Assembly: GCA_963843795.1 (NCBI GenBank)
Contig: CAWJLW010000006.1
Coordinates: 930,001-994,000 of the forward strand
Reading direction: 5' to 3'
Length of the DNA: 64,000 bases
DNA from: an uncultured bacterium
GTDB taxonomy: Bacteria; Armatimonadota; Abditibacteriia; Abditibacteriales; Abditibacteriaceae
The notes beneath the pieces were generated by a model, which saw only the letters and a list, made by a program, of their open reading frames with translations, was not told the DNA's origin and made no database searches. Shown here in pieces: positions 7,302-64,000 of the stretch. The translations under genes and the position numbers were made by a program. Within the stretch, counting starts at the first letter, position 1; each line of letters begins with the position of its first letter.

Positions 7302-9069
7302 ATTCCACCTGCTGAACATTGAGAATCGTGCTTTGCGAAGTCACGAAGCGATTTCGCTGGTCGTAAATGAAAACTGTGAATTTCTGCGCTCCGGGCGCGA
7401 TGCCGCTCAAATCTAGATTGATTTCGTGTGCGCCGGGACGCGAGCTGGCATAGACGATTTTATCGCCAAGTTTGGCGAAAGTTTTCGTACCTTCCAGTTG
7501 CAAATTGCTCCAAATCGACAAGCGAGCCACACCGCGCACCGTTGCGCTGGCACCGATTGGAAGCGGTAATTGCGGCGTGGTTGAACCGATGGTTTGCCAT
7601 TGCGAAAGAAAATAAGGCGCGCTGGTGACGCGCTGATAGGCTGCAAGTACTTGCGGTAGGTCGCCGAGCGTGTAATCGTTTAGCGTTTTGCCCGGCGAAG
7701 GGTTGGCAATGGTGTTCATGTCGAACCAATCGATCAGTTTCACACGCGGATATTTTCGCGGCAGCGCGCCGTAAACCATTGCGAGCTTTTGAATCGCAAA
7801 TTGCGGACGGTCTTTATTGTCCAACGCAGCACGATGCGAAGCAGCAAATTCGCAAATCGCAATCGGTTTGCGTGATGCATATTTACGATAAATTGGATCG
7901 AGAAGAGCGAGGGGCGAATCGTCGAAAGCCGGACGCTTGCGATTGTTTTGGTAAAACGGCACGGCGTAGAAATTGATGCCGACCCAATCGCAATTTGCGT
8001 CGCCGGGATAATACGCGTCGATGTTGCCCAACGGCGGATTATTAACGCACCAAATTGTCGCGATGCGCGGCGCGCGCCGGTGCAAAACCTTGTGAACCAG
8101 AGCGAACTTCTGGCGATACAAAGCCGGATTATTGTGATACGGCGTCCAATCGCCGTTCATTTCGCTGGCGAAACGGAAGAAAATCGGCCAATCCACGTCG
8201 CGACATTGTTCGGCAAAATCGCGCAAATAAGTATCGTCTTGCACATCGTTGAGATTTTTCGGTTCCCACGCAATTTGTGGGATAGCGCCCTGGGCCTTGA
8301 GTTCTGCGATCCATTGACGCGGGAATTTTTGGCCGTAAGCCAGATACATGAAATGTGAGCCGTGCGGCTTGCCAGCGAATTGCGCCCAATCGCGGGCACG
8401 TCGATGGGTTTGGAAGTTTTCGTCCCGATATGAATCTGTTAAGTCGCTGCTGCGGTCGATGAAGGCGCCCAGATAACAGCCGACGAGTGGTTCCAAAGGT
8501 GCGCTGGAATATAAGGTTTTTAGTTCGCTATCGCTGGCTTTGCGTTCAAGATAAAGCGTGGTCGTCGGGTCGTAACGCGCGGCGCGCTGTTCGTCGATGA
8601 TGGCCGCATCGTTGAGTTTTTTGAGGCGATATTGTGCCGCTTCTGCGCGCAAGGTTTGGGCGGCTTCCTGATACAAACCAGCATCGAGGTAAGAATCGGC
8701 GAGTTCGCGATAAGCGGCGAACAATTTATATTTGGCGATTTTTTCTTTCAACGGTGCCAGTCGTGCCTCGTTAATGCGCGGCTTGATGGCGGGCGCGGGC
8801 AAGCGCAGCGGTAAATCGCTAAGTGAAGCGGCATCAGGTGGCGCAGGAATTGGCGTGGCTTTGTGAAACGACGGATTTTCCTCATCGGATGCATTTTCAT
8901 CGGGTACGTTTTCATCAGCTGCATTTTCATTGGATGCAGCCTCATCGGGTTCAAATTCGTCTGATTTGGATGTGCTGGCGATTGGTTGTGATGATGACGT
9001 GTTTTCGGGAACGTTGGCAGAGCAACCAATGAGCAGAAAAGCAGCGCAGAAAAGCAGATTTCGAGGCAT
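7294..9069 (-). CDS. Lipoprotein with GH26 (beta-mannanase-like) domain
   Basis: Lipobox-like LLIGC; IAWEP, FRFASEMNGDW, YYPGD...DWVG and KPIAICEF motifs; acidic repetitive N-terminal linker. Confidence 0.85.
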   Translation of the reverse strand: MPRNLLFCAAFLLIGCSANVPENTSSSQPIASTSKSDEFEPDEAASNENAADENVPDENASDEENPSFHKATPIPAPPDAASLSDLPLRLPAPAIKPRINEARLAPLKEKIAKYKLFAAYRELADSYLDAGLYQEAAQTLRAEAAQYRLKKLNDAAIIDEQRAARYDPTTTLYLERKASDSELKTLYSSAPLEPLVGCYLGAFIDRSSDLTDSYRDENFQTHRRARDWAQFAGKPHGSHFMYLAYGQKFPRQWIAELKAQGAIPQIAWEPKNLNDVQDDTYLRDFAEQCRDVDWPIFFRFASEMNGDWTPYHNNPALYRQKFALVHKVLHRRAPRIATIWCVNNPPLGNIDAYYPGDANCDWVGINFYAVPFYQNNRKRPAFDDSPLALLDPIYRKYASRKPIAICEFAASHRAALDNKDRPQFAIQKLAMVYGALPRKYPRVKLIDWFDMNTIANPSPGKTLNDYTLGDLPQVLAAYQRVTSAPYFLSQWQTIGSTTPQLPLPIGASATVRGVARLSIWSNLQLEGTKTFAKLGDKIVYASSRPGAHEINLDLSGIAPGAQKFTVFIYDQRNRFVTSQSTILNVQQVEYD

Positions 9070-9153
9070 ATATCAATTGTAGCGTGCTGCAAGTACTTGC
9101 AAGCACCCAAAAACGGCGGCGATTTGTGTTGGAGCCGTTCTATACTGCGAATT

Positions 9154-9828
9154 ATGAAAATTGGTGTTTTGGCGTTGCAGGGCGATTACGAAGCGCACGA
9201 AAGAATTTTAGAACAGTGCGCAGTCGAAATTCCACTTGAAACCGTGCGCGTGCGCGATGCAAAAGCGCTCGAAGTTATCGACGGTTTAATTTTGCCCGGC
9301 GGCGAAAGCACTACGATGAGTCGTTTGTGCGAGCGCTACGAATTATGGCAGCCTCTGCATGACGCCGTCGCGGCAGGTTTGCCGTTATTCGGGACGTGTG
9401 CGGGCATGATTCTGATGGCGCGCAATCTCAGTGGCCAAACGCGCAATTTTACGCAGCGAACATTGGGCGTTCTCGACGTGGATGTGGCGCGCAATGCTTA
9501 CGGCAGTCAGCTCGATTCATTTGAAACCACATTGCAATGGCAAGATAACGAGCCGCCGTTGAACGCGACTTTTATTCGCGCACCGCGCCTCACTCGACTG
9601 GGAAACGCGGTGCAAGTACTTGCCCGTCACGATGGCGAGCCTGTCGCCGTGCATCAGGGTTTATGGTGGGCATGCGCTTTTCATCCCGAAATCGCCGGTG
9701 AAACCCGTTTGCACAGAGCATGGCTGCGTGCCATTATGGAACGAAGTGAGAGCGAAGGAAACGAGAGCCGTCGCAGCGGATTGCGCGCGGGCGCAACAAG
9801 CGCTCAGGCTGGGAAAAACCATGATTGA
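9154..9828 (+). CDS. pdxT: Pyridoxal 5'-phosphate synthase glutaminase subunit
   Basis: MKIGVLALQG, LILPGGESTT, GTCAGMI, RNAYGSQLDSF, FIRAP and FHPE. Confidence 0.96.
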   Translation: MKIGVLALQGDYEAHERILEQCAVEIPLETVRVRDAKALEVIDGLILPGGESTTMSRLCERYELWQPLHDAVAAGLPLFGTCAGMILMARNLSGQTRNFTQRTLGVLDVDVARNAYGSQLDSFETTLQWQDNEPPLNATFIRAPRLTRLGNAVQVLARHDGEPVAVHQGLWWACAFHPEIAGETRLHRAWLRAIMERSESEGNESRRSGLRAGATSAQAGKNHD

Positions 9829-11059
9829 ACGGCCTTCATCGCAAACGCCCACAGAAAAGTTGGCGTTTGACGAAACTAAAGTGCATGAAGCCAAAGCTCT
9901 TGAAGCCAAAGCTCTCGAAGCTAAAGCTCACTCGACGCTGCAAAAGCGCGCGGCTTTGCTGGGGGTCGGCGTTTTAATGTGTGGTTTTGTGGCCGGCTAC
10001 GGTTACGGTGTGGGAGTCAATCGTCAGGAAAAAAATGTGTTGCAACAGCAGCCCAAGCCGCGCCCGTTTGCGCCGATTGTCAAGGGAATGCGGCTGGCGC
10101 CCGATGGAAGGCAACTGGCGTTCGCAGCAGTTTATGATTCTTCGCAGCGTTCGAGCCGTTTTGTAGTCGATGTTGAAAGCGGGCGTTTTAGCGCGCAGGA
10201 AACACCGGTGGGTTGGCAGGATTATGTCGTGGCGTGGAATCGCGCTGGTAATCAATTCCTGGTCAAGCGCGAGCGCATTCCGCGTCCTGTTGCCGAAGCC
10301 AGCGCCGGGTTTTACGAACAGAAAATTCTGCCCGGACAGTGGCCGCGTCTTAGTGGCGATATGGAAGCCATTAAACCCAAATTACCTTCTGGTGAAACTG
10401 TTATCGCCGGCTTTTGGGACGACCGCGACCGCTTTGTGGTGAAAACCAAGCGCGAACCGAAAAAGTTGCTGGTGCCGCAAAACCAGAAGCTCGCGACTTT
10501 CGATAGCTCATCCGATGATTATCTGCAAAATCGTGTCGTGACCGAAAATGGTCGCTCGGTCGCGTATGTTGTGCGCAACGTGGGCGCTATCGGTTCTCCG
10601 CTGGCTTTATTTCGCGTGGAAAATGGCGTCGCCAAAAATCTTAGTGGCGATTTGGCCGATATGGTGTGGGCGTATATCTCCGATGACTCCAAATGGATGA
10701 TCGCGGCGCGCTATGCCGATAATCAGAAAGATTGGCAGTGGAGTTTGTATCATATCACCCCCGCCAAAGCTACCAAAGTGAAAACGGCGCAAATTCCGGG
10801 TGATGTCATCGGCGTTTATTGGTCGCCGGACTTCAAGACCATTCTGGGCGCCAATGGAGAATCGTTGTGGCTGATCGATATTCCTACGCTTAAAGCGCGC
10901 AAATTGGGCGATAAGCGTTTGAGCAACGCCGACGACGCGACGTGGAGCGTGGATTCCAAGAGCGTTTATGTCGCGACCGATGGCAAGCTGTGGCACGTCG
11001 ATGTGAAAAGCGGTGCTATGCGCGTGTTATGGACGTTTCCCGATCAATACTGGCAGTGA
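9821..11059 (+). CDS. Membrane-anchored TolB/WD40-like beta-propeller protein
   Basis: One TM segment followed by PD40-like repeats (LAPDGRQLAF, WSPDFKTI, WSVDSKSVY); start overlaps the pdxT stop. Confidence 0.65.
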   Translation: MIERPSSQTPTEKLAFDETKVHEAKALEAKALEAKAHSTLQKRAALLGVGVLMCGFVAGYGYGVGVNRQEKNVLQQQPKPRPFAPIVKGMRLAPDGRQLAFAAVYDSSQRSSRFVVDVESGRFSAQETPVGWQDYVVAWNRAGNQFLVKRERIPRPVAEASAGFYEQKILPGQWPRLSGDMEAIKPKLPSGETVIAGFWDDRDRFVVKTKREPKKLLVPQNQKLATFDSSSDDYLQNRVVTENGRSVAYVVRNVGAIGSPLALFRVENGVAKNLSGDLADMVWAYISDDSKWMIAARYADNQKDWQWSLYHITPAKATKVKTAQIPGDVIGVYWSPDFKTILGANGESLWLIDIPTLKARKLGDKRLSNADDATWSVDSKSVYVATDGKLWHVDVKSGAMRVLWTFPDQYWQ

Positions 11060-11316
11060 AACTCGCATCCTGTGCGCCGCAAGTACTTGCAACAGACTTT
11101 ATCTATTAATGGTCAATATTTTGTAGCTAAGAAAATGATGTGCGACTGCGAAATGTGTCGCTATGTGTGGTAAATGGTTATAGTGGAAAGTGGTGCTTTT
11201 TGAGCACTCATTTTGCGCTCCAGTGATAGTTGGTAAAGGCATAGCCGATTAAATTCAGGTCGCTTGAAGATCGAAACCAAATTGAATGTGAATTGATTGT
11301 AGATTGATGAGGTATT

Positions 11317-12867
11317 ATGGCACTTTTCCCCGGTGGCGCGCGGCCACGACCCGCAGGTTCGCCCGTCGCAACGCCCGATAAAAATTTGATTCGGCCCCAT
11401 ACCGATAACGGCTCCAACGGCAACGGCACGGCGACTATTGAACGTCCGGCACCTGATACGCCTCGTGTCATCAAGGCACCCGAACGCAACGAGCCGCCAA
11501 GTGCGCCAGCTCCCACTATCGAGATGGATGGCAGCAGTGGCGAGGAAGAATACGATTTTCTCAAAGCCGAAATGGAAATGCCCGTCGATGCCGACGACGT
11601 GGACTTCGATGATGAACTTTTGCGTTTATCGCACAAAATCCATTCGGTTCTGGTCGATGAGTTGGGCGGGCAGCAATTCAAAAACGACGACCGCGAACGT
11701 TTGCGTCCAGTCGCGCAGCAGGTAATGAACGACGTTCTCAAAGACGAAAAACCTCTCGTGCCGCGCCGCAAAGCGGTTTTGATGGAAGAAGTTTTGAACG
11801 AAGTTTTGGGTTTTGGGCCGATTCAGTATTTGCTGAACGACCCGACGATTTCGGAATTGATGATTAACGCGCCCGACATGATTTTCATCGAGCGCAAAGG
11901 CAAAATTTGCCGCAGTCGCCGCAAGTTCATCGACGAACGCCACGTCATGAACATCGTGGATCGTATCGTGCGACCGCTGGGCAAACAAGCCAACGCGCGC
12001 ACGCCGATGGTCGATGGTCGTTTGCCCGACGGTAGCCGCGTCAATATCATTATTCCGCCCCTAGCGCGTTTCGGGCCGAGCATGAGCATTCGTAAATTCA
12101 AACAGGAAAAGCTCACCGGCGACGATTTGGTGAAGTTCGATTCGATCACCGAAGATATGCGCATGTTCATGGAGGCGTGCGTGAAAGCGCGCATGAACAT
12201 GATTATCGCGGGCGGCACCGGTAGCGGAAAAACCACAACGCTGAACATCGTTTCCAACTTCATTCCCAGCGGCGAGCGCGTCATTACCATCGAAGACGCG
12301 GCGGAATTGCAGGTGCGCTTGCCAAACTTGGTTTCTTTGGAAAGCCGCCCGGCCAACATCGAAGGCGAAGGCGAAGTTTCGATTCGCGACTTGGTGAAAA
12401 ACGCGCTGCGTATGCGTCCCGAACGGATTATCGTCGGCGAATGTCGCGGCGGCGAAACGTTGGATATGTTGCAGGCAATGAACACCGGCCACGATGGAAG
12501 TTTGTCAACGGTTCACTCGAACACGCCGCGCGACACGATTTCGCGTTTGGAAACGCTGTGCATGATGAGCGGCTTGGATTTGCCCGTTCGGGTAATTTCC
12601 AAACAGATCGCGAGCGCAGTGCAGATTATTATTCAGCAGTCGCGCCTAAGCGACGGCAGTCGCAAAATCACCCACATCACCGAAGTGCAGGGCATGGAAG
12701 GCGAAACGCTATTGTTGCAGGATATTTTTATTTTCGATCAGAAAGGACGCGGCTCGGATGGCAAAGTGATCGGACGCCATCGCACAACAGGTTTTCGTCC
12801 CAAGTGTGTGAGCGCAATTGAAGCCATGGGTTACAAACTGCCGCGCGATTTGTTCCAGCCCGATTGA
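11317..12867 (+). CDS. tadA: Tad/Flp pilus assembly ATPase CpaF/TadA
   Basis: DGRLPDGSRVN, GGTGSGKTT, IEDAAEL, ALRMRPERIIVGECRG and AMNTGHDGS. Confidence 0.95.
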   Translation: MALFPGGARPRPAGSPVATPDKNLIRPHTDNGSNGNGTATIERPAPDTPRVIKAPERNEPPSAPAPTIEMDGSSGEEEYDFLKAEMEMPVDADDVDFDDELLRLSHKIHSVLVDELGGQQFKNDDRERLRPVAQQVMNDVLKDEKPLVPRRKAVLMEEVLNEVLGFGPIQYLLNDPTISELMINAPDMIFIERKGKICRSRRKFIDERHVMNIVDRIVRPLGKQANARTPMVDGRLPDGSRVNIIIPPLARFGPSMSIRKFKQEKLTGDDLVKFDSITEDMRMFMEACVKARMNMIIAGGTGSGKTTTLNIVSNFIPSGERVITIEDAAELQVRLPNLVSLESRPANIEGEGEVSIRDLVKNALRMRPERIIVGECRGGETLDMLQAMNTGHDGSLSTVHSNTPRDTISRLETLCMMSGLDLPVRVISKQIASAVQIIIQQSRLSDGSRKITHITEVQGMEGETLLLQDIFIFDQKGRGSDGKVIGRHRTTGFRPKCVSAIEAMGYKLPRDLFQPD

Positions 12868-13029
12868 AGCCGCTTGTCGCCAAAAGGCTTGGCGCAAAGC
12901 TGCCAAATGTGGAAAAACAGGTTTGGTCAGGGGCTGGGCTGTCGCCTGCGGAAAGTTAAATCTGCAAGTACTTGCAGTGGCCAAAAACCGAATTTTGTCA
13001 CCGGAAAGTTGTATTGAGGACGCACTGTT

Positions 13030-13978
13030 ATGGAAATTGCGATGTATGGCGTTGGGGCGCTGGTGGTTCTACAGTTCATAGCCGCCGTCGCTATGCGCAA
13101 GAAAAAACCGGCGAAGGAAGATGAAGCGCTGCACGTTTCGACAGGGCAGCCGCAGCGCTTCGCATTTTTGCAGCGCTTTCTCAAAGGTCGGCGCGGCACT
13201 TCCAAAATTGAACGCGATTTGGTCACGGCGGGCCTGCTGGTCAAGCCGACCGAATTTTTGATGATCAATTTGGTTGTGTTCGTGATTTTTTTCCTCATCG
13301 GAACGGTTTATGCCGGAGGAATGCAGTTGGACAGCAGTTTCGCTTCGGTGGTAAAGCGCACTCTTGCGGTCGCGTTTTTTAGTTGGGTCGGTTTTAAACT
13401 GCCCCGTCTGATTTTGGGTTTCATGGCCGGTTCGAGGCGCACCAAGTTGGAATATCAACTGGTCGATGCTTTGGCCATTATTTCATCGGGTCTCAAAGGC
13501 GGTTACTCGTTTGCGCAGGGTATGGACATGGCTGCTACGCAAATGGACGCGCCTATCAAAGACGAATTTGCACGTGTGATGCGTTTGGTGCAACTTGGCT
13601 TGCCAACCGACCGCGCGTTGCAACAAATGGCCGACCGCATCAATTCCTACGACTACGATATGACGGTTGGCGCAACCAACATTCAGTTGGCTGTCGGCGG
13701 TAACTTGTCGCAACTTTTGGAGGGCATTGCGGCCACAATTCGAGACCGCATTCGACTCAGGCGCGACATTTCGGCTCTCACGGCTCAAGGCCGCATTTCG
13801 GGCGGTATTTTAATCGCCCTGCCCAATCGGCATCGCCTTAATGCTGCGCGTAGTGAACCCGGAATATATGGCTTATCTGACCACGACGCAGCTAGGCAAT
13901 AACTTCCTGTATTTCGCATTAGGCCAACAATTGATCGGTATTTACTGGATCAAAAAACTGCTCGACTTTGACAACTAA
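13030..13978 (+). CDS. tadB: Tad pilus platform protein TadB (T2SS F family); frameshift near 13824
   Basis: T2SSF-type domain (GGNLSQLL...LTAQGRISG). Removing one base near 13824 restores the typical tail LPIGIALMLRVVNPEYMAYL...GIYWIKKLLDFDN* ending at 13978. Confidence 0.88.
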
Positions 13979-14019
13979 TTTCGTACTTAATTCCGCTGTA
14001 AACCGCGACGGAGAATTTT

Positions 14020-15045
14020 ATGTATATCGGCAATCGTTTCATTCCCATGGCCACCATCACCATCATGGCTGTGGTGTGGCTGGGCTTTTTGGTTTGTATC
14101 GGTTTGTTGCTTTCGGCGCGTTTTATGAAAGTCAACTTCCAAAAACGTTTACAGCAAACCTTGTCGCCAAGCGATGAAGAACTCGATGATCTCGTCGACG
14201 AAAGCCACGATGAGGAAATGGGCCAATCGGTGGCAACACGCATTCTTTCGCCCATTTTGAAAAGCCTTGGCGGTCGCATGAACAAGGGTGCGCGCGGCGC
14301 GGGCACCGCACAAATTCGTGATATGCTCGAACAAGCCGGCCATCCGCTGGGTATGTATTACCCAGAATTTATGGGACTGAAAGCGTTTTGTTTTTTGCTT
14401 TTTACCGGTCTTGGCATCGTGACCTCGTTCTTCGCCGTGCCGATTCTATTAAACGTCATGGGCTCACCAGGCGACCCCCAACTGACAATGATGGGCCAGC
14501 TTTTGTGGGTTGTTATCTGGATGTATGCCGGTTTTTCCGGCCCCACTTTCTGGCTGCGCCGCGTGCTCAATCAGCGCATCAAGCAAATTCGGAAATCGAT
14601 GGCCGATGTGGTCGATCTAATCGTCCTCGCCATCGAAGCCGGTCTGGGTTTCGATATGGCAGTGGGCGAAGCAGTAAACAAAACCAAAGGCCCTTTGACC
14701 GATGAACTGCGTCGCGTGCTGGACGAAGTGCGCGTTGGCAAACCGCAAGAAGACGCGTTTCGCGACATGGCCGCGCGCTGCCGTATGCCCGAACTTACGC
14801 TTCTGGTCGCTGCCATTGCGCAAGCAATGCGCATGGGAACGGGCCTTGGCGTCGCACTGCGCTTGCAAGCGACCGAAATTCGTGAACGCCGTATGGCTTT
14901 CATCAAAGAACAAGCGGGCAAACTGCCTGTGAAAATGATGCTGCCACTCGTGCTTTTCATCTTCCCCGCCTTATTCGTCGTTATCTTAGGCCCCGCCGCT
15001 GTGCAAATGAGCGAAATGACCGCGCGCGGCGAACTGAACTTCTAA
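14020..15045 (+). CDS. tadC: Tad pilus platform protein TadC
   Basis: DLIVLAIEAGLGFD and AGKLPVKMMLPLVLFIFPALFVVILGPA. Confidence 0.92.
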   Translation: MYIGNRFIPMATITIMAVVWLGFLVCIGLLLSARFMKVNFQKRLQQTLSPSDEELDDLVDESHDEEMGQSVATRILSPILKSLGGRMNKGARGAGTAQIRDMLEQAGHPLGMYYPEFMGLKAFCFLLFTGLGIVTSFFAVPILLNVMGSPGDPQLTMMGQLLWVVIWMYAGFSGPTFWLRRVLNQRIKQIRKSMADVVDLIVLAIEAGLGFDMAVGEAVNKTKGPLTDELRRVLDEVRVGKPQEDAFRDMAARCRMPELTLLVAAIAQAMRMGTGLGVALRLQATEIRERRMAFIKEQAGKLPVKMMLPLVLFIFPALFVVILGPAAVQMSEMTARGELNF

Positions 15046-15058
15046 CCGTCGATTGTAG

Positions 15059-15104
15059 AAGCACAAAAGCGCGCTGCAAGTACTTGCAGCGCGCTTTTGT
15101 GCTT
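15059..15104. terminator. 46-bp perfect palindrome centred on the motif; bidirectional terminator
   Basis: aagcacaaaagcgcgctGCAAGTACTTGCagcgcgcttttgtgctt between convergent tadC and the GH51 gene. Confidence 0.85.
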
Positions 15105-15115
15105 TAAATTTACGT

Positions 15116-17764: not shown

Positions 17765-17785
17765 ATTTTTGGATGTTGCGCTTTC

Positions 17786-18991: not shown

Positions 18992-19043
18992 AAAAATGCT
19001 TGGCAAGTACTTCAGTACTGCAGTTGAATTTCCCCAAATAGCT

Positions 19044-51900: not shown

Positions 51901-51906
51901 AAATTA

Positions 51907-53732: not shown

Positions 53733-53795
53733 AGCGTGACACAGGATGCAAGTACTTGCACCGCGCTTTAGTCGGGTTCACTATAATCAAAAGCT

Positions 53796-54428
53796 ATGAA
53801 TTTTTCGGTTATTTTCGCCATCGTTTTGTCTTATCTTTTCGGCGCGATTCCGTTTGGCGTTCTGGTGGGCCGCGCGCGTGGCGTCGATGTGCGCGCAGTC
53901 GGTAGCGGCAATATCGGCACGACGAACGTGTGGCGCACCTTGGGGCCGCTGGCGGGCAGCGTGGTATTTTTGTTGGATGTGGCCAAAGGTTGGGCCGGGC
54001 CGCTATTCGCGCACGCTCTGGCTGGCGATGAGGCCAATATCAAAGCGGTTTGCGCTGTGGTCGCGGTGCTGGGCCACACTTTTTCGATTTTTCTGCGCGG
54101 TGGTGGTGGCAAAGGTATCGCGACAGCGTTTGGCGCTTTGCTGGGCTTGTCGCCGATTGTCGGCGTGACGGTCGGCGCGACGTGGGCGATTGTGCTGGCA
54201 TTGACCAAATATGTTTCGGTGGCTTCGATTGTCGCGGCGATTTTAGTTCTGGTTTTACCGCTGTTGTTGAAGCTGCCGACAGCGTATGTCATCGTAATGA
54301 TGATAATGGGCGTGCTGGCGATTGTAAAGCACAAGAGCAACCTCGAGCGTTTGCGACGGGGCACCGAGCCGAAAATTGGCGGCAAAAAAGCCGATACGCC
54401 CAGCAGCAAAGCCAATGCGCGCTGGTGA
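53796..54428 (+). CDS. plsY: Glycerol-3-phosphate acyltransferase PlsY
   Basis: GSGNIGTTN, GGKGIAT and HKSNLERL. Confidence 0.96.
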   Translation: MNFSVIFAIVLSYLFGAIPFGVLVGRARGVDVRAVGSGNIGTTNVWRTLGPLAGSVVFLLDVAKGWAGPLFAHALAGDEANIKAVCAVVAVLGHTFSIFLRGGGGKGIATAFGALLGLSPIVGVTVGATWAIVLALTKYVSVASIVAAILVLVLPLLLKLPTAYVIVMMIMGVLAIVKHKSNLERLRRGTEPKIGGKKADTPSSKANARW

Positions 54429-54491
54429 AATGACGAAAAACCACTTGGCAAGTACTTGCCAGGCAATTCGAGCGATAAAGCGGAAGTTTTG

Positions 54492-55487: not shown

Positions 55488-55653
55488 AAGATTTTGCCGA
55501 AGAAAATTGCCGAAATCGCGAAAAAACGTGGAAAAATCGTTGTGGAGCGTGCTTTTCTGGCAAAAACGTGCCATAATTTAGCCGTTCCCCAAAGTGTTGG
55601 TTTAGTTTTGGTTGTTGTATTTAGCCGTTACTCTCAGGAGGGTTTTCAACGTT

Positions 55654-56061
55654 ATGGCTACACAGGAAAAAGCAGGGCCGATGACACGCGCCGATATTGC
55701 CGGAGCGGTGGCTGCCAAAATGTCCGTCACGCTCAAGCAGGCCGATGAAATGGTGCGCGAATACGAAGCCGCGATTGTGCGCGCGCTGGTTTCAGGCCAG
55801 GAAGTGCGCTTGAATGGATTCGGCGTTTTCAAGTTGCAGCATCGCGAAGCGCGCATGGCGCGCAACCCGCGCACCGGCGAGCAACAGCCCGTCGATGCCA
55901 AAACTGTCCCCAAATTTCAGCCGTCCAAAACCATGAAGGATGCGCTGATCCAAGACGATGGCGCCAAAGCCAAGCCTAAAGCTGCCGCAGCCAAAGCCAA
56001 GCCTGCTGCCAAAGCCAAAGCGCCCGCTAAAACCGCTGCTAAAGCCAAAAAAACCAAATAA
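55654..56061 (+). CDS. hup: HU-family DNA-binding protein with Lys/Ala/Pro-rich tail
   Basis: GFGVF and ARNPRTGE; C-terminal AKAKPKAAAAKAKPAAKAK; AGGAGG upstream. Confidence 0.93.
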   Translation: MATQEKAGPMTRADIAGAVAAKMSVTLKQADEMVREYEAAIVRALVSGQEVRLNGFGVFKLQHREARMARNPRTGEQQPVDAKTVPKFQPSKTMKDALIQDDGAKAKPKAAAAKAKPAAKAKAPAKTAAKAKKTK

Positions 56062-56085
56062 TCCACGAGCAAAAATGCCAAGAAT

Positions 56086-56117
56086 AAAAAGCCGCAGCGG
56101 AATCGCTGCGGCTTTTT
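56086..56117. terminator. Bidirectional intrinsic terminator
   Basis: aaaaagccgcagcg-gaat-cgctgcggcttttt. Confidence 0.85.
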
Positions 56118-56158
56118 GTTTTGCTTGATTTGAGGCCGCAAGTACTTGCGGCCTGTTT

Positions 56159-56983
56159 TTAATGTCCATGAGGCGCTAAAAAGCGCACCGCAAGTGCAAA
56201 GGCATAGCCGACAATTGTCGCTGCGGTGATTTTCCAGCCCTCATCGTCGGCGTGGGCTTCTGGCAACAAATCGCACGCGGCGACATATAAAAAGCTGCCG
56301 CCTGCCACGCCCAAAACAACGCCTTGTGTCGCTTCATCGACCGGTAAAACCCAGTGATAAAACAAAACGCCAATCACGATGAACGAGGCTGAAATCAAAG
56401 TCGAAACCAAAACGCGCGAGCGTTCGCGGCCCGCGCGCAGCATGATCGCGCCCAAACTTAAGCCCACTGCCATTTGGTGCAGCACAATCGCCAGAACCAC
56501 TACTAAACCCACGGTTTGCGAAACTGTGAACGCAGCGGCAGTTGTCAGACCGTCGGCGAAATTATGCACGCTCATACCAGCCAATGCTACCGTATCGGCA
56601 TGACCGTGTGATGTGGCGTGAATGTGAGAATGCGCATGTGAATGCTCCGAAGGTTCGGGTTCGGGATGCAGATGCGCAGCGGGTGAATCGCTGTCATCAA
56701 TTTCGCAATTGCGATGGCGACAGGTGTGAAAATGCGTTAAACGTTCGGCTAAATACAACGCCAGAAATCCCAATCCCGCGCCGCTCATGGCGCGCGTCGC
56801 GTTCTTCTCCAGCGCTTCGGGCAGCAGTTCGTGCAGCGCGGTCGCCAGCATCAAACCCGCCGAAAAACCGATCAACAAGCCCAAACGCGAGGCGAATAAG
56901 CGAGAACGCAAAACCGGCAGCGTCGGTAACGCCGCGCCCAGCACAAGGGAAAACATCGCAAATAAAGCCAGCCAGAATGCCAT
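56159..56983 (-). CDS. ZIP family metal transporter
   Basis: His-rich loop, HNFADG and GSFLYVAACDLLPE. Confidence 0.92.
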   Translation of the reverse strand: MAFWLALFAMFSLVLGAALPTLPVLRSRLFASRLGLLIGFSAGLMLATALHELLPEALEKNATRAMSGAGLGFLALYLAERLTHFHTCRHRNCEIDDSDSPAAHLHPEPEPSEHSHAHSHIHATSHGHADTVALAGMSVHNFADGLTTAAAFTVSQTVGLVVVLAIVLHQMAVGLSLGAIMLRAGRERSRVLVSTLISASFIVIGVLFYHWVLPVDEATQGVVLGVAGGSFLYVAACDLLPEAHADDEGWKITAATIVGYAFALAVRFLAPHGH

Positions 56984-57094
56984 AGAAAATTAAAACGAAA
57001 CAAGAAAACGGGCCTGCAAGTACTTGCAGGCCCGAATAGTATCCAAAATTACCGACTTCTTTATACCGCAAGTTAGTTGCAGCAGACAGTTTGA

Positions 57095-57880
57095 TCAAGC
57101 TGCAGGTATGACATTCGCGCTCAAAACATCTTCGCTCGCCAGCGCTTCGCGCTGTGCCTGCGCCAGCGAGGGCCCGACGACAATGCCGCGATCTTTTTGA
57201 ATCGAGTAGGTATATTCGACTAGATCCGTTGGCGTACCGCGCATTTTGCGTACGAACATCGTGCGCGCGTGCTGTCCATCGGCCAGCTTGTTCAAGCGCA
57301 GCGCAATCACGCCCGAAACCATAAATTCCTCGACGCCCATTTCGCTGCCCGGCAAAGTCCACGGTGAAGAATGCGAGTTCATAATCGTGGTCACACCCAA
57401 GTTGTCATCGATGCCAAAAATCAATTTGCGAATATATTCCTGCACATCATACATGCGGTCGGAATGCAAAACCAGAGGCACAATCGGGTCAATGACGACG
57501 CGCTTGGCACCAATGCGGCGCACTTGTTTCGACAAATCTTGAAGGACTTCGTTGGCATCGACGGCATTAGTTTTCGAGTTGCGCACCCAGTTGAAGTAAG
57601 GCGAAACGTCCAGCAACATCAAGCGCCCTTCATCGGCAGGCGTGCGCAAATCCCAGCCAAGCGTTTCGATGTCCTCGATCATGTGGCTGGGCTTTTCGTC
57701 AATGGAAATGAAGATGCCATTTTCGCCGCGCTTCAAGCCTTCCTGAATGAACTGCGCACCGAAGGTGGTCTTACCGGTTCCAGGCGGGCCGGAAACCAGA
57801 TAACTTTTGCCTTGTGGCAAACCGCCTTGCAGCATTTCGTCCAATTTTTCGATGCCGGTCGGCACCCGTTCTCGGGCCAT
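57095..57880 (-). CDS. Single-domain KaiC/RAD55-like RecA-superfamily ATPase
   Basis: TGIEKLDEMLQGG, GPPGTGKT, RVVID and RKMRGT. Confidence 0.9.
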   Translation of the reverse strand: MARERVPTGIEKLDEMLQGGLPQGKSYLVSGPPGTGKTTFGAQFIQEGLKRGENGIFISIDEKPSHMIEDIETLGWDLRTPADEGRLMLLDVSPYFNWVRNSKTNAVDANEVLQDLSKQVRRIGAKRVVIDPIVPLVLHSDRMYDVQEYIRKLIFGIDDNLGVTTIMNSHSSPWTLPGSEMGVEEFMVSGVIALRLNKLADGQHARTMFVRKMRGTPTDLVEYTYSIQKDRGIVVGPSLAQAQREALASEDVLSANVIPAA

Positions 57881-58014
57881 AATTCAATTCCTTTTGTCTT
57901 CCATTTCGCGCTAAATCTTCAAAACTTCTTAAAAATGTAGAGGATTTTGCAAATAAACCACCCTGCAAGTACTTGCAGGTCTTTGCGCTGAATTTCTACA
58001 GCTCTATGCGAACT

Positions 58015-60306
58015 TTAAATTTTCTCCAACGGCGCGAAGGAAACCGCCAGCTTTTTCTTGCCGACATCAGCGCTCAAAAACGCGACTTCGGCCCATTCGC
58101 TTGCTCCGCCGCTGGGCGAAGTGGCTGTTACAACGCCTTCGCCAAACGTCGGATGTTTCACCCGATCACCCACGCGGAACTTGGTTTCTACTTCGACACG
58201 TGCCGAGGAAGAGCCGTTGGAAACTGGAGTGTTGCCGCTGGTCGAGCGCGGCCCATAACGGCTGCGTTCGGGCGCGTCCCAACGTGTGGCGTAACTTTGC
58301 ACGCTACCACCACGAGCCAGTCCGCTTTTGTCCAGCAGATGTTGAGGCAATTCGTCCATGAACTGCGAGGGCTGTGTCGATTCCGTCCGTCCGTGCAGCG
58401 TGCGCTGCGTGGCATAAGTCAAAATCGCCTGCGATTGCGCTCGGGTTAACCCAACATAGCACAAACGGCGCTCTTCTTCTAAGTCGTCAGCGCTGGCATT
58501 TTCGCCCCACAGAGCGCGCGCGTGTGGAAGCAACCCTTGCTCCATGCCGACCATGAATACAACCGGAAATTCCAGCCCTTTGGCCGAATGCAAAGTCATC
58601 AGCGAAGCTGCGTCGTCGGCATCGCTGCCACTTTCGCGTCCGCTTTCCAATGCCGAAGATTCCAAAAACAAGCCCAGATAGGGCGCTTTTTCCATCGCGC
58701 TGCCGCCTTCGGCTTCCAACTGAGTCCAATCTTCTGCGCTCATGCGTTCGTCGAAATCATTGGCGGCGGCGATGAATTCTTCAACGTTCGCGATGCGATC
58801 ATTGCCGTTGCCGGTTTTCTCGCCGCGCAGAAATTCGTAGTAGTCAGTCAAGTAAACCACGCTTTCCAAAATCTCGACGACCGTGGTTGCCTTCCCCAAA
58901 CGCTCTTGTAATTGTTCCATTAAACGCCGCAACGATTCCAATTTCGCATCGATCACGCGCCCAAGTACTTCTGGTCCGCTGTGCATAATGGTTTCCAAAA
59001 GCGACAGCCCGCTTTCGCGCGCAATAGAACGCAATTTCTCAACTGTTGTCGCGCCGATACCGCGCGGCGGAACGTTGATAATGCGCGCCATCGCCAGATC
59101 ATCGTTGGGGTTGTAAAGAACTTTGAGATAGGAAACGATGTCGCGGATTTCTTTGCGGTCGTAAAACCGCTGAGTGCCAACCAATTTTAACGGCAAACGC
59201 GCGCGCATAAACGCTTCTTCAAAGGGCCGACTTTGCGCATTGACGCGGCACAAAATCGCAAAATCGCTGGCTTTTAAACCACGCTCGCGCTGCAATAATT
59301 CGATTTGCCGCACCACCCAAAGGGCTTCTTCCTGTGCATTGGCCGCACCATGCACTAAAACTTGCGCGCCGCCAGAAGTGTCCGTCCATAAACGTTTGGC
59401 CTTGCGCCCAAAATTGTTGGAAATTACGCCATAAGCCGCGTCCAAAATGTTCTGCGTCGAACGATAATTTTGCTCTAAACGAATCACTTCGGCATCGGGA
59501 TATTGATGCTCGAAATCCAAAATTATCTTGACGTCGGCTCCGCGCCAGGCGTATATTGACTGATCGTCGTCGCCCACGACACAAATATTGCGGTGTTTGG
59601 CGGCCAGCATTTTCGCCCACTCGAATTGCGCCTGGTTCACGTCTTGGAATTCGTCGATCAAAACGTGCAAAAAGCGGTCGCTCCAATAAGTGCGCGATTC
59701 TTCGCTTTCGCGCAAAAGCCGCACGGCTTGCCCGATCAAATCATCGAAGTCGAGGGCGTGCGCGGCTTGCAAACGTTTTTGGTAATGCTCGTAAACGCGC
59801 GCGGTGGTTTTTTGCAGCGGCCCAGCGGCACTTTGGGCGAACTGTTCGGGGGTTTGCAGATTATTTTTCGCATCAGAAATGCGACCCAGCAGTCGCGCGG
59901 GCGGGTAGCGGTCGGAACTAAGATCGAGTTCTTTGGCGATTTCTTTGATCAAACGCAATTGGTCGTCGCTGTCGAAAATGACGAAGCGCGGGTCGAGGCC
60001 AATGTGGTGGCCGTGAATGCGCAGCAGTTGGGCGCTCATGGCGTGGAAAGTGCCGACCCACAAGCGACCGGCTTCTTTGCCGATGAGTTCTTGCAAACGC
60101 TCGCGCATTTCTCGCGCGGCTTTGTTGGTGAAGGTGACGGCGAGAATGCGGCCCGCATTGACACCACGTTCGAGCACGAGATGGGCAATGCGATGAGTGA
60201 GAGTGCGGGTTTTGCCGGAACCGGCACCGGCGAAAATGAGAAGCGGGCCGTTTTCGTGTTCGACGGCGGCGCGTTGCGGCTCGTTGAGACCGGACAAAAG
60301 ATTCAT
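58015..60306 (-). CDS. pcrA: ATP-dependent DNA helicase PcrA/UvrD
   Basis: AGAGSGKT, DEFQD, VGDDDQSIY, QNYRS, TLHSAKGLEF, EEERRLCYVG and a C-terminal Tudor-like domain. Confidence 0.96.
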   Translation of the reverse strand: MNLLSGLNEPQRAAVEHENGPLLIFAGAGSGKTRTLTHRIAHLVLERGVNAGRILAVTFTNKAAREMRERLQELIGKEAGRLWVGTFHAMSAQLLRIHGHHIGLDPRFVIFDSDDQLRLIKEIAKELDLSSDRYPPARLLGRISDAKNNLQTPEQFAQSAAGPLQKTTARVYEHYQKRLQAAHALDFDDLIGQAVRLLRESEESRTYWSDRFLHVLIDEFQDVNQAQFEWAKMLAAKHRNICVVGDDDQSIYAWRGADVKIILDFEHQYPDAEVIRLEQNYRSTQNILDAAYGVISNNFGRKAKRLWTDTSGGAQVLVHGAANAQEEALWVVRQIELLQRERGLKASDFAILCRVNAQSRPFEEAFMRARLPLKLVGTQRFYDRKEIRDIVSYLKVLYNPNDDLAMARIINVPPRGIGATTVEKLRSIARESGLSLLETIMHSGPEVLGRVIDAKLESLRRLMEQLQERLGKATTVVEILESVVYLTDYYEFLRGEKTGNGNDRIANVEEFIAAANDFDERMSAEDWTQLEAEGGSAMEKAPYLGLFLESSALESGRESGSDADDAASLMTLHSAKGLEFPVVFMVGMEQGLLPHARALWGENASADDLEEERRLCYVGLTRAQSQAILTYATQRTLHGRTESTQPSQFMDELPQHLLDKSGLARGGSVQSYATRWDAPERSRYGPRSTSGNTPVSNGSSSARVEVETKFRVGDRVKHPTFGEGVVTATSPSGGASEWAEVAFLSADVGKKKLAVSFAPLEKI

Positions 60307-60429
60307 GAAAACAAAATCGTAGGGCTAAAACTGGATGTGCAAGTACTTGCTATGTGCCTCAGCACTGGCAAACAAATTCGCGGCAGGAAGGCTGGTGCCC
60401 TTCTGCCGCGAATCGACGCTGTGCGAATG

Positions 60430-61296
60430 TTATTCGGGGCGCGGAATTGGCGATTCTCCGCCACCGCTGCTCCCGCTGCTGCGTTCGGGACGTGGAATCG
60501 GCGATTCACTCGTGCTGCGTTCGGGACGTGGCGCACTGCGCACTGGCGGTCGCGACCCCGAACTGGAAGAAGATGAACGGCTGGCACGGTCGCCCGAACT
60601 GGAACTCGAGCTACCTGAACCCGAACCACTCGACGAACTATCGCCAGAAGACGATGCGCTGCGCGTCGAACGCGATGGCGTATCGCTTGAACTGGAAGCG
60701 TAACCGCTCGAATCGTCGCTGGACGAGCTGTCGGTGCGGCTGGGCGTGTCGGACGAAGTTGTGGCCGTGCTGGGTGGCGATGCGCTTGTCGTACGCGTGC
60801 GGCGTCGGCGTCGGCGACGTGTAGGCTCGGCGCGGGCATTATCGCGCGAACGCATACCCGAAGAATCATCGAATTCACGCTCGCCCAGCGGTCCGGAGGC
60901 GGAACTGTTATCGGAATCGTTGCTATCGGAGTTGCTGCCCGAGCTATTGCTATCGTTGCGACTGCGCGAGGCCGAAAGCGAAGAAGTCGGAACGCTGGGC
61001 TTAGGATTAATTTCGCGCGCGCGTTCTTTGAGCACTTCGGTCGGCGGCGGCGGCGGCCCGGCACCCGCTGATTCGGCGGGCAGAACCTCGACATCGACGC
61101 GCGGCGGCCCTTCTTTGATGCTGTTCTGGCGCGTCACACTGGTGTTGATAGAGGCGGTGGTGGCTTTGTTGTCCTTGTCACTCAAACTGGAGCCGAACAA
61201 TTTGCTGCTGAGAATATAACGCCCGAAAGCGTAGGAACCGTAACCTAAAGTGCCCAGCAAAGCCAACACAATAACGAGGCGTTTGAGAAACTTCAT
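60430..61296 (-). CDS. Membrane-anchored Ser/Arg-rich intrinsically disordered protein
   Basis: N-terminal signal anchor, a poly-Pro run, a poly-Arg run, Ser-rich tracts and a duplicated ESPIPRPE. Confidence 0.7.
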   Translation of the reverse strand: MKFLKRLVIVLALLGTLGYGSYAFGRYILSSKLFGSSLSDKDNKATTASINTSVTRQNSIKEGPPRVDVEVLPAESAGAGPPPPPTEVLKERAREINPKPSVPTSSLSASRSRNDSNSSGSNSDSNDSDNSSASGPLGEREFDDSSGMRSRDNARAEPTRRRRRRRTRTTSASPPSTATTSSDTPSRTDSSSSDDSSGYASSSSDTPSRSTRSASSSGDSSSSGSGSGSSSSSSGDRASRSSSSSSGSRPPVRSAPRPERSTSESPIPRPERSSGSSGGGESPIPRPE

Positions 61297-61473
61297 ACAT
61301 ATAAGCGTAGCACGACTGCGCTTAATCGCCCACAACATCACCTGCAAATACTTGCCGCTACTTGCCACCAAAATCCGTCGGCAATTTCGCACTCATCGAA
61401 AGCGACCCATTAGAAAATTAGGTTCTCTATCGGGTCGTTTTCACAAATTACGCGGCAAGTACTTGCAAACGGT

Positions 61474-64000
61474 TTAGCGCGCAATCAAATTGAACGTGCC
61501 GCTTGCTAACACCTTTCCACTCGCATCCCGTAAACCGGCAATTTGCAGTTCGATTTTATCTCCTGCACGCAAATTCAAACCGCTCAACGTCACGACATTG
61601 TTGGCGTAAGTGGCCGCCCCGATTTGCATCGCGGCACCATTGATGGCCAGCTTGTAATTCTTCGTGTCACGCGCTGAAATCACATCAAGCGCGCCGCTGA
61701 AATTCAGGGCAATCGCGTTCTGTGCCGTAGACGCATTGGCCGAGGACAGGCGCACATTCGATGGTTGCGGCGCGGTCTCCGCGACAATAATGCGATTGGT
61801 CACGCGATTGATGTTATCGCTGTTGTCGGTTGCTGTGATGCGCAAATCGTAGCGGCCCGCCAATAAATCGGTCGTGGCATTCGCGCCCAGTTTGGGTAAC
61901 GGTCCCTTGTAACTCCAATCGATGCCTTGCATCATGAGCGGCAGTTCGGTCGGAGCAGCAACCCAGCTTTTACCGTTCCAAAACTTGCCGTCGAAACGTT
62001 GCCACAACAGCGTCACGATTTTCAAACCGGCATTGCGGTCGCGCACACGACCGGCGATTTTGCTGAATTGACTCACAGTTTCTCGGTCGCGCGGTGTGTC
62101 GAAAGCTAATTCGGGCGCGCGCTGGTCGATAACGTTCAAACGCACGCGCGCGGTTGCCGTGGTTTTGCCATCGCTGATGGCGTAGGTGAACTCATCGACA
62201 CCGATTTTTCCGGTGCTGGGCAGGTAAAACAAGGTTCCGTCGTTGCGCAATTGAAAGCGGCCCTTGCTGGGATTATTAAGCGCACGCACTGTCGGTTTGC
62301 GACCTGCTGGAAAACTATCGTTGCGCAAAACGCCGGGCGCTTGAATTTGAAAAACGCCGCTGCTGAGCAGCACGATGCCGCTCGCTTGTGCTTGGCCTGG
62401 TGCACCCAGAATCAGGCTGAAATCGTCATCGGTCGCGCTCACCGCCGCATCGCCACCGACGGCGATTTCAACGCTGGCCTGCGCGCTTGCTACGCCATCG
62501 CTGACGCGGAACGTAAATGCATCCTTGCCAAGAAAACCTGCTTTTGCGCTATAAATCAAGTTCGGAATGTTGCCGGAAAGCGTGCCGTTTTGCGGATTGG
62601 CAATGATGTCGAAACTCAGCGTGTCGTTATCAACATCAGTCGCGCCGAGCGTAATTCGCAGTGGTGTCGCGTTATCGGCTGTGAGTTGCTGCCTAATGGC
62701 GACCGGCGCATCGTTGACAGCAAGTACTTGCAGCTCGATTGTCGCGAGGTTGGAATCCAGGGCGCCATCGTTGGCGGTGAAAGTGAAGCGATCCGCGCCG
62801 TTGAAATTCACATCGGGCGTATAAATCAGGTTTGGCGCTGTTCCCGAAAGCGTGCCATGTTCCGGTGCAGCGACGATGCGCAAATTCAAATTTGCGACCG
62901 GAGTCTCAATATCGCTCGCGCTCAACACGATATTCAAGGGCGTATCTTCGTCCGTCGAAAGCTGTTGCGCGTGGGCGATGGGAGCATCGTTGATGGCAAG
63001 TACTTGCAGCGCGATTTGAGCGATGTTGCTATCGGATGCGCCGTCGCTGGCAACGAAGCTGAAAGCGTCCGCTCCATTGAAGTTTGCGCTTGGCGTATAA
63101 ATTAAACTCGGTGCTGTGCCCGACAATGTGCCGTGTGCGGGCGGCGTCACGAGGCGGAAAGTTAAATTGGCAATTGGCGTATCAACATCAGTCGCGCCCA
63201 GAAGGATGTTAAACGGTGTATCTTCGTTCGTCGAAAGGTTTTGAGGTGACGCGACTGGCGCGTCATCAATCGCGTTTACGGTCAAAGTTGCGGTCGCATT
63301 CGCGCTATTTTCGCCCGAGTTGACCGCAAAGACGAGCGTGCGATTGGTGGTGTTGGGCGTGTCGCTGAGGTTGTTGTAACGAACGCTGGCAAGTACTTGC
63401 TGGTAATGCGCGATGCTATCGTTTCCGTTTAAATTCAGAGTGCGCGTCTGGGCGTTGTAATTCGCACTGATTTGCGTGCCGCTGACATTAGCGTTTAAAA
63501 TTTCGCTCGCGTTATCGGGGTTTTGGTTCAGTTGGACGGTCGCGCTACTCAATTCCGCGTTATTGGTGAGGACGATATTGGGCGCGATAACGATTGGCGT
63601 TTGTTCGCTGAAAGCTGTCGTCACATCCTTGCCTTCGGGACTGCCATTCAGGTCGATAGCAAGTGTGCTCACTGGAATTTGTACTTCAAAAGAGCCCGCA
63701 TCGTTATGGCTGCTGGCCGAGCGCGGAAATCCGCGTTGATCGGTCGTGATGGCGGCGAGCGGTGTCGCCAAATTCAAAGCCGGACTATCGGCCATTAAAG
63801 CGTGCGTCAATGTCGGTCCGTCGTTATTGGCCAGCACTTCCAGCCGCGCATCCAGCGGCGCGGCCACAGTTCCGACGCGGTCGTTGGCACCAAAGCCCGT
63901 TGCGCTGCCGACTTTGCCGATGACATTGAAGCCACCCGAAACGTAAGCACCGCGCAAATCGGGATTGCTGTTGGCGCTATTTCCGGCGACTATAGAGCGC
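61474..64000 (-). CDS. Large surface protein, C-terminal part (choice-of-anchor-Q-like region plus tandem Ig/cadherin-like repeats)
   Basis: The frame stays open to the window end (RSIVAGN...). It has NNDGPTLTHAL...DQRG...DAGSFE and 92-aa DAP.A...EDTP repeats. Confidence 0.88.
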   Translation of the reverse strand, partial: RSIVAGNSANSNPDLRGAYVSGGFNVIGKVGSATGFGANDRVGTVAAPLDARLEVLANNDGPTLTHALMADSPALNLATPLAAITTDQRGFPRSASSHNDAGSFEVQIPVSTLAIDLNGSPEGKDVTTAFSEQTPIVIAPNIVLTNNAELSSATVQLNQNPDNASEILNANVSGTQISANYNAQTRTLNLNGNDSIAHYQQVLASVRYNNLSDTPNTTNRTLVFAVNSGENSANATATLTVNAIDDAPVASPQNLSTNEDTPFNILLGATDVDTPIANLTFRLVTPPAHGTLSGTAPSLIYTPSANFNGADAFSFVASDGASDSNIAQIALQVLAINDAPIAHAQQLSTDEDTPLNIVLSASDIETPVANLNLRIVAAPEHGTLSGTAPNLIYTPDVNFNGADRFTFTANDGALDSNLATIELQVLAVNDAPVAIRQQLTADNATPLRITLGATDVDNDTLSFDIIANPQNGTLSGNIPNLIYSAKAGFLGKDAFTFRVSDGVASAQASVEIAVGGDAAVSATDDDFSLILGAPGQAQASGIVLLSSGVFQIQAPGVLRNDSFPAGRKPTVRALNNPSKGRFQLRNDGTLFYLPSTGKIGVDEFTYAISDGKTTATARVRLNVIDQRAPELAFDTPRDRETVSQFSKIAGRVRDRNAGLKIVTLLWQRFDGKFWNGKSWVAAPTELPLMMQGIDWSYKGPLPKLGANATTDLLAGRYDLRITATDNSDNINRVTNRIIVAETAPQPSNVRLSSANASTAQNAIALNFSGALDVISARDTKNYKLAINGAAMQIGAATYANNVVTLSGLNLRAGDKIELQIAGLRDASGKVLASGTFNLIAR

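Follow-up and report, generated by a model that had tools for sequence, protein, structure and literature searches.

Why should one short palindrome recur throughout a bacterial genome, and why should it be read as the same four residues, QVLA, in one protein after another? The question is raised by a 64-kb stretch of DNA (hereafter the window; positions 930001–994000 of contig CAWJLW010000006.1, here C6) from an uncultured member of the Abditibacteriaceae, in which the perfect 12-nt palindrome GCAAGTACTTGC was found in 49 exact copies, against 0.00 expected and none in 100 dinucleotide-preserving shuffles. The source genome (G000; an assembly of 4.30 Mb in 11 contigs) was compared with that of a sister species of the same genus (G001), with a closed genome used as outgroup (G002), and with further relatives. 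In our reading, the word is probably substituted into genes, mostly as QVLA, by a pressure that acts on the DNA word and is likely to be a drive of the uptake-signal type.

Abundance and distribution of the word

Genome-wide, GCAAGTACTTGC was counted 2567 times, that is, once every 1675 bp and far ahead of any other 12-mer. Many copies lie within longer palindromes, TGCAAGTACTTGCA occurring 1290 times and the 16-mer CTGCAAGTACTTGCAG 879 times. The 40 relatives that were searched for the exact 12-mer contained 0–3 copies each, and the hyper-abundant word is confined to one genus. Genes were called by home-made dicodon log-odds scoring of the longest open reading frames (ORFs), and the 3068 ORFs obtained account for 84.7% of the genome. 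By this annotation 1398 copies are intergenic, 131 lie across a gene edge, and 1038 are inside ORFs; after dropping the copies within 90 nt of a possibly over-extended ORF start, 729 coding copies were retained.

Along C6 the copies are spaced evenly (20-kb bins with a mean of 12.6, a standard deviation of 3.1, and a variance-to-mean ratio of 0.77), with the exception of two motif deserts of 26 kb each, C6:56011–82496 and C6:517681–543430; the next-largest gap is 9.4 kb. One desert is crowded with insertion sequences from at least five families (IS21, Mutator, IS4/5, and IS110 transposases among them) together with GH39 and GH9 genes. The other, with 49% GC, encodes HsdR and HsdM of a type I restriction-modification system, as well as an integrase, an HNH endonuclease, and ParA-like proteins. 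Since both deserts are islands of this kind, the word is missing from mobile or recently acquired DNA. Close pairs also occur, with starts 21 nt apart in the gene for a GlcE-like protein and 63 nt apart near ORF 31090..32208, and 85 successive copies on C6 are less than 50 nt apart. The motif density of the small contigs C1–C4 and C11 is 2–8 times below that of the main contig (for example, 3 copies in the 40.6 kb of C3; C2 has 58.7% GC); possible origins of these contigs are plasmids, mobile DNA, and mis-binning.

The word and the commonest tetrapeptide of the proteome

No other tetrapeptide of the predicted proteome is as common as QVLA, with 520 occurrences where residue frequencies predict 34.5 (25.9 with the motif codons masked); the reversed control, ALVQ, was found 25 times. 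The sequence CAAGTACTT spells 459 of the 520 (88%), whereas synonymous codon usage predicts a fraction of only 0.0034, because GTA makes up 7.1% of the Val codons and CTT 8.4% of the Leu codons. When these copies are removed, 61 QVLA are left, against about 26–35 expected, and 22 of the 61 have the one-mismatch spelling CAGGTACTT; the tetrapeptide is then no longer enriched. No QVLA excess was observed in a sample of 155,359 residues from G001 (4 vs. 4.7 expected) or in crude ORFs from 400 kb of G002 (3 vs. 6.9 expected). The excess is therefore driven by the DNA word and not by the peptide.

A first-pass annotation, made from the letters of the window alone, had proposed that a DNA-level force is shaping this proteome. 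Codon choice that departs so far from ordinary usage, a QVLA excess that the samples of G001 and G002 lack, and the ungapped alignments described below all support this proposal.

Reading frames of the coding copies

By frame, the 729 coding copies are divided into 451 read as QVLA (62%), 148 as KYL (20%), and 130 as ASTC (18%), far from equal use (chi-square 268). As the ORF calls are crude and the starts are those of the longest ORF, the absolute counts for KYL and ASTC may be inflated. The strong bias toward QVLA that had been read from the window is thus real, but at 62% it is weaker genome-wide than the 13 of 16 counted there. Residue abundance predicts proportions of 73/17/10% for QVLA, KYL, and ASTC, and the 67 copies in confidently coding segments aligned to G001 agree with this prediction (50/10/7; p = 0.90). 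QVLA is the most frequent reading because all four of its residues are abundant and tolerated, and the bias needs no special mechanism, since residue abundance alone predicts it.

Codon frequencies had also been considered as the expectation and were dropped in favor of residue abundance, as they predict the opposite order, with KYL first (0.108), before QVLA (0.032) and ASTC (0.007). The codons of the KYL frame are the commoner ones (AAG 26%, TAC 42%, TTG 38%), and codon preference is not the cause of a bias in which the favored frame has the rarer codons. What acts on these genes is a frame-blind pressure on the DNA, filtered by the residues that the proteins tolerate.

Substitution at variable positions

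To place the coding copies among their orthologs, all 573 motif-bearing proteins of G000 were aligned by tblastn to 100 of the 560 contigs of G001 and to 0.4 of the 3.5 Mb of G002. Among the 67 motif sites aligned in G001, 45 were ungapped within 8 residues, a gap was close by in 16, and a gap interrupted the motif itself in 6; for 1213 control sites drawn at random from these alignments, the corresponding figures were 85%, 11%, and 3.6%. The direction of the gap varies among the six, and no clean insertion of four residues is found among them. In G002, 24 of 39 motif sites were ungapped. The site in the MoxR protein of the window was ungapped in 80 of 80 homologs; V was already there in 65 of them and L in 32, but only 2 have Q and 5 have A. 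The first-pass annotation gave VEVL as typical of PdxT homologs where the protein of the window reads VQVLA; the four solved structures read VEIL, VDVL, VDVL, and VEVL, all without a gap.

Flanking residues are less conserved at motif sites than at control sites, both in G001 (48.9% vs. 63.8% identity) and in G002 (38.8% vs. 53.8%). Because clean insertions are missing, V and L were there before, and the flanks are poorly conserved, the word is made by point substitution at variable positions, most of which read V-L beforehand. Findlay and Redfield (2009; PMC2817400) described this behavior for uptake sequences. The suggestion of the first-pass annotation that the motif arises by substitution and not by insertion is upheld in this way at 61 of the 67 sites in G001, as well as in MoxR and PdxT.

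A variant of the word in the sister species

The 12-mer itself is completely missing from G001 (zero copies). This genome has an iterated palindrome of its own, AAAGTACTTT or CAAAGTACTTTG, and the 8-nt core AAGTACTT is common to both species, with 2725 occurrences in G001 (3.1 Mb) and 2965 in G000; each of 59 other relatives searched had 0–90. The flanks of the G001 word turn the ASTC frame of G000 into QSTL, and they would put Cys or Trp into the QVLA frame; in line with this, 70 of its 99 coding 12-mers read QSTL. QSTL is the top tetrapeptide of G001 (93 vs. 2.2 expected). For the frames of G001, residue abundance gives the right direction (61/24/15%) with an imperfect fit (p = 0.005).

At orthologous positions the two words meet. 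The exact core, with G001 flanks, is kept at 15 of the 67 G000 sites, and the V-L of G001 aligned to a QVLA of G000 is spelled GTACTT in 11 of 18 cases, compared with 8.5% of all V-L in G001. Among the 17 listed G001 sites with at most one mismatch from the core, 13 are in the QVLA frame, and there Q is replaced by K in 9 and A by S in 6, exactly the changes that the AAA..TTT-C flanks of G001 impose. Considering that protein identity between the two species is about 62%, sites shared to this extent must have been kept in place, or created again and again, by an agent that recognizes the DNA. Conservation between the genomes exceeds the neutral expectation at coding sites and does not do so at intergenic ones.

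Intergenic copies as terminator-like hairpins

Intergenic copies of G000 have the consensus AAAA.cGCgCTGCAAGTACTTGCAGcGCg.TTTT, in the general form AAAA-stem-GCAAGTACTTGC-stem-TTTT, and their perfect arms often reach 16–18 nt. The mean palindrome arm is 10.9 nt in intergenic copies and 6.8 nt in coding copies, from which long arms are absent. Convergent spacers have the highest density (3.4 copies per kb, with a copy in 66% of them), followed by tandem spacers (2.4 per kb) and divergent spacers (1.4 per kb). In the window, many of the 28 intergenic or gene-edge copies are located just 3' of genes, within longer palindromes flanked by A- and T-tracts. A simple terminator scan of positions 40001–60000 flagged 6 of the 11 intergenic copies there, including the second-longest stem that it found; one of the flagged structures, at 47055–47092, has 17 pairs.

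Judging from these features, most copies (about 60% of the total lie in intergenic, terminator-like structures) look like bidirectional terminator hairpins. With a mean arm of 6.8 nt, such a role cannot hold for the coding copies.

Related words outside the genus

Two contigs in the IMG/VR database also contain the word. The first (G063) is virus-like, 67.8 kb long with 39% GC, and has 20 exact 12-mers within GTGCAAGTACTTGCACTA, many of them just upstream of the AAAGGAG ribosome-binding sites of minus-strand genes, in an operator- or promoter-like position. The second (G064) is a complete 101-kb genome with terminal repeats and four copies of the 12-mer. A host link to G000 was sought and had to be discarded, since there were 0 blastn matches and only 4–5 weak protein matches. 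The two may be phages of this host, or a phage operator may match the word by chance, given 16384 possible 14-nt palindromes and 2.9 million contigs.

In sister genera the tetramer GTAC is almost absent. A sample of G005 had 1 copy in 70.5 kb, where a Markov model predicts 72, and AGTACT was counted 1, 5, and 48 times in G005, G008, and G021 (6.0, 6.1, and 8.0 Mb), against 654–1389 for its reversed control. Avoidance of AGTACT, the ScaI site, was considered as the sign of a shared reader and abandoned, as the avoided word is GTAC in any context. The scarcity looks like avoidance of the restriction type, and it is a palindrome centered on GTAC that the genus of G000 and G001 has amplified.

Copies in the window

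The copies of the window were placed by our own ORF call, Pfam matches, and alignments to PDB structures (Table 1). All 13 of the 16 coding copies between 7643 and 63400 that had been listed as QVLA were recovered in that frame, in the proteins originally named, with one exception: the ORF with the copy at 30408, annotated at first as a coiled-coil protein, has no Pfam match. As for the three copies listed as ASTC, those at 38424 and 38445 stand and the one at 21268 is doubtful. The statement that no copy reads KYL in a confident coding sequence is correct for the window, whose three KYL copies are near the 5' edge of longest ORFs; with 20% of coding copies in this frame genome-wide, it is a small-sample effect. 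Both one-mismatch copies, at 4636 and 6865, were confirmed to encode QVLA by synonymous spellings.

Table 1. Exact and one-mismatch copies of GCAAGTACTTGC in the window
Feature	Position	Strand	Location and remarks
QVLA copy	653..664	-	ORF 1..822(-), runs past the window; no Pfam match; outside the range of the first-pass annotation
KYL-frame copy	3038..3049	-	5' part of ORF 2517..3194(-), alpha-L-fucosidase N-terminal piece; upstream of the Pfam match, coding doubtful
One-mismatch copy GCAAGTACCTGC	4636..4647	-	CAG GTA CTT GC = QVLA; FA_hydroxylase ORF 4113..4901(-)
ASTC copy	6774..6785	-	MiaA (IPPT) ORF 6426..7319(-); outside the range of the first-pass annotation
One-mismatch copy GCAAGGACTTGC	6865..6876	-	CAA GTC CTT GC = QVLA; MiaA
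QVLA copy	7643..7654	-	GH26-like ORF 7294..9069(-)
(V)QVLA copy	9612..9623	+	PdxT ORF 9097..9828(+)
ASTC-frame copy	21268..21279	-	3-keto-disaccharide hydrolase; residues 7-10 of longest ORF 20455..21297(-), and may therefore precede the true start
QVLA copy	23119..23130	+	DSP-phosphatase ORF 23054..23749(+), residues 22-26; start codon uncertain
QVLA copy	27534..27545	-	BatA/vWA ORF 26063..27976(-); aligned G001 site TKVLSP (AAAGTACTTTC)
QVLA copy	28356..28367	-	MoxR ORF 27989..28981(-); aligned G001 site EVLS (GAAGTACTTTC)
QVLA copy	30408..30419	-	ORF 28985..30964(-)
KYL-frame copy	32127..32138	-	70 nt into longest ORF 31090..32208(-); probably 5' of the true start
KYL-frame copy	32190..32201	-	7 nt into longest ORF 31090..32208(-); probably before the true start
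QVLA copy	37709..37720	+	FAD_binding_4 (GlcE-like) ORF 37617..38801(+)
ASTC copy	38424..38435	+	GlcE-like ORF 37617..38801(+)
ASTC copy	38445..38456	+	GlcE-like ORF 37617..38801(+); starts 21 nt past the start of the 38424 copy
QVLA copy	45490..45501	+	1217-aa ORF 43394..47047(+), weak GH106/GH2_N matches
QVLA copy	48279..48290	-	DUF1992 (PF09350) ORF 48056..48502(-)
QVLA copy	51537..51548	+	DUF512/radical-SAM ORF 50443..51900(+)
QVLA copy	62720..62731	-	Big_9/cadherin-like surface protein ORF 61474..63999(-)
QVLA copy	62996..63007	-	Surface protein ORF 61474..63999(-)
QVLA copy	63389..63400	-	Surface protein ORF 61474..63999(-)
28 intergenic or gene-edge copies	942..61466 (span)		Starts 942, 1166, 4084, 9089, 11079, 12964, 15076, 17572, 17735, 20415, 26041, 27973, 31070, 36353, 38832, 41712, 42760, 43321, 47068, 49444, 51932, 53748, 54448, 56138, 57016, 57965, 60339, 61455

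The nearest named relatives of the MoxR protein are from metagenome-assembled genomes of the Abditibacteriota and Abditibacteriaceae. In the fucosidase ORF 2517..3194(-), the Pfam match spans only profile positions 6–134 of 345, and ORF 1193..2542(-) adjoins and overlaps it; a frameshift, a split gene, or a sequencing error may account for this arrangement in the region 1193–3194 (-).

A proposed uptake-type drive and the evidence against it

Under the favored mechanism, cells would take up DNA with the word in preference to other DNA and recombine it, and the word would spread and persist by point substitution wherever the protein tolerates it. We favor a drive of this type because every sequence-level trait of the word matches the class to which uptake signal sequences (USS) and DNA uptake sequences (DUS) belong. 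In these known systems, copies are also put to use in terminators, and dialects vary among related lineages. The word of G000 resembles them in its thousands of copies, about one per 1–2 kb with a large share in genes, in its coding frame bias, its enriched peptides, its preference for poorly conserved positions, its absence from recently acquired DNA, and its lineage-specific dialects, G001 using CAAAGTACTTTG with the core AAGTACTT. The even spacing of the copies and their apparent use in terminator-like hairpins are further uptake-like traits. Findlay and Redfield (2009; PMC2817400) report for USS and DUS a biased reading frame, enriched peptides, a location at positions of low conservation, and no copies in genes that lack homologs. 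Two differences of degree or direction emerge from a comparison with that study: the tetrapeptide of G000 is about 15–20 times over expectation and the commonest of its proteome, compared with an enrichment of about twofold for tripeptides, and the favored frame of G000 uses rare codons, while the frames described there follow preferred codons.

Several observations weigh against an uptake-type drive. G000 has ComEC, DprA, and 8 secretin matches, but ComEC, DprA, and secretins are likewise found in the motif-less G002, G005, and G006; being equally present in such relatives, these competence genes do not discriminate and were rejected as a marker of the drive. To our knowledge, no competence has been described in the Abditibacteriota. 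The word is a perfect palindrome of 12–16 nt, unlike the three asymmetric uptake sequences tabulated in Findlay and Redfield (2009; PMC2817400), and the copies on the virus-like contig G063 are no less suggestive of a site for a DNA-binding protein than of an uptake signal. Pure substitution is challenged by gaps near motif sites at about twice the control rate in G001, and one of the gapped cases there (L040) is ambiguous and could be an insertion of four residues. Intergenic copies are not conserved in position, the G001 core being present in 13 of 30 spacers with the G000 motif and in 8 of 19 without it, and the non-coding copies of G001 show no clear terminator flanks.

A further step, to which we lean slightly less than to its opposite, is that the word serves as an 'own-kind' tag of one genus, which some protein reads and whose preferred flanks shifted between the two sister species and dragged along thousands of sites and hundreds of residues (Q to K and A to S; QVLA vs. 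QSTL).

Alternative explanations

The most serious alternative, which we regard as doubtful, is that a dimeric chromosomal protein (a nucleoid organizer, a reader for self-marking or defense, or a methyltransferase) binds or modifies the palindrome, which would be under selection site by site and independent of uptake. The coding copies would then come from the same substitutions, passed through the same protein-level filter. The precedent is the highly iterated palindrome HIP1 (GCGATCGC) of cyanobacteria (Xu et al. 2018, PMC5861425; Elhai 2015, PMC4390886), and the former paper argues for HIP1 along these lines. Like HIP1, the word of G000 is a perfect palindrome, short and hyper-abundant within and between genes, with lineage variants and with orthologous sites conserved beyond codon expectation, as seen at the 15 of 67 coding sites kept despite an amino-acid identity of about 62%. 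Its sequence, phylum, and length (12–16 vs. 8 nt) are different, and it appears to be strongly co-opted in terminator-like hairpins.

A chromosomal binding protein is also favored by the even spacing of the copies and by the 20 operator-like copies on the 39%-GC virus-like contig, which, having no sequence link to G000, could be a coincidence. As for a reader, G000 and G001 have in common a beta-class N6/N4 methyltransferase with 74% identity, yet counterparts exist in the motif-less G006 (65%) and G005 (58%). It is the only PF01555 match of G000, and it was rejected as a lineage-specific reader on this account. No lineage-specific methyltransferase for the word was found in the PF01555 search, the C5 and Dam-type families not having been searched, and the two ORFs upstream of the gene in G000 gave no NCBIfam match. 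Selection would also be difficult to maintain on about 2500 separate sites that each contribute very little.

It is improbable that biased mutation, or repair of the very-short-patch type, turns near-matches into the word without any benefit, acting on whatever DNA is present in the cell. Such a process would account for the common one-mismatch copies (506 vs. 2567 perfect), which are mostly transitions (T9>C 68, A4>G 59, C12>T 37, G1>A 33), and for the absence of the word from recently acquired islands, and an altered repair specificity would produce a dialect shift. It leaves unexplained the enrichment at the 3' ends of genes (3.4 copies per kb in convergent vs. 1.4 in divergent spacers), and we know of no repair specificity of this kind that extends over 12–16 nt.

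Repetitive extragenic palindromic (REP) elements with their associated tyrosine transposases (RAYT) and miniature inverted-repeat transposable elements (MITEs) are short palindromic repeats concentrated downstream of genes. Insertions of such tiny mobile elements that happened to stay in frame are a highly unlikely source of the word. Most copies are indeed intergenic and within longer palindromes, and the doubled rate of gaps near motif sites would fit insertion. In contrast to REP elements and MITEs, however, 729 copies of the G000 word are in frame inside genes, without indels and without the long arms of the intergenic ones; no gap falls inside the motif at 61 of 67 G001 sites or in any of the 80 MoxR homologs, no insertion is a clean one of four residues, and V and L are already present in the outgroups. 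G000 has only one weak, partial match to a Y1 transposase (31.8 bits), when motif-less relatives have up to 6. With neither insertion indels relative to orthologs nor a convincing Y1 (RAYT) transposase, REP/RAYT elements were ruled out, and the mobile-element explanation is already largely refuted.

Finally, peptide-level selection for QVLA, or an artifact of assembly or sequencing behind the word, is hardly credible: nothing beyond the raw QVLA excess speaks for it, and it is refuted by the single rare-codon spelling of 88% of QVLA and by an independently assembled sister genome with a related word at orthologous sites, as well as contradicted by the presence of the same word in other frames and in spacers, by relatives without a QVLA excess, and by the preserved open reading frames.

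Significance for the lineage

In a literature search, none of the 15 best-ranked of 765 matching papers contained the 12-mer, and none of those listed dealt with iterated palindromes in the Abditibacteriota, the two that mention both being unrelated. Phenomena of this kind have precedents in USS, DUS, and HIP1; new here are the word, the phylum, the magnitude of the effect on peptides, and the paired dialects. For these genomes, the word marks native as opposed to recently acquired DNA in the lineage, and it biases peptide statistics, codon models, and predictions of repeats and terminators.

More broadly, the genome shows with unusual clarity, and in an extreme form, a DNA-level pressure that overrides codon usage and alters protein sequence, the commonest tetrapeptide of a proteome being dictated by a non-coding signal, with a sister species that serves as a natural control for dialect, frame, and peptide. 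The genome pair opens to direct testing an old question, namely whether iterated motifs such as uptake sequences and HIP1 are kept by drive or by selection, and at what cost to proteins. If the reading as an own-kind tag is true, a molecular drive would be visibly rewriting two proteomes.

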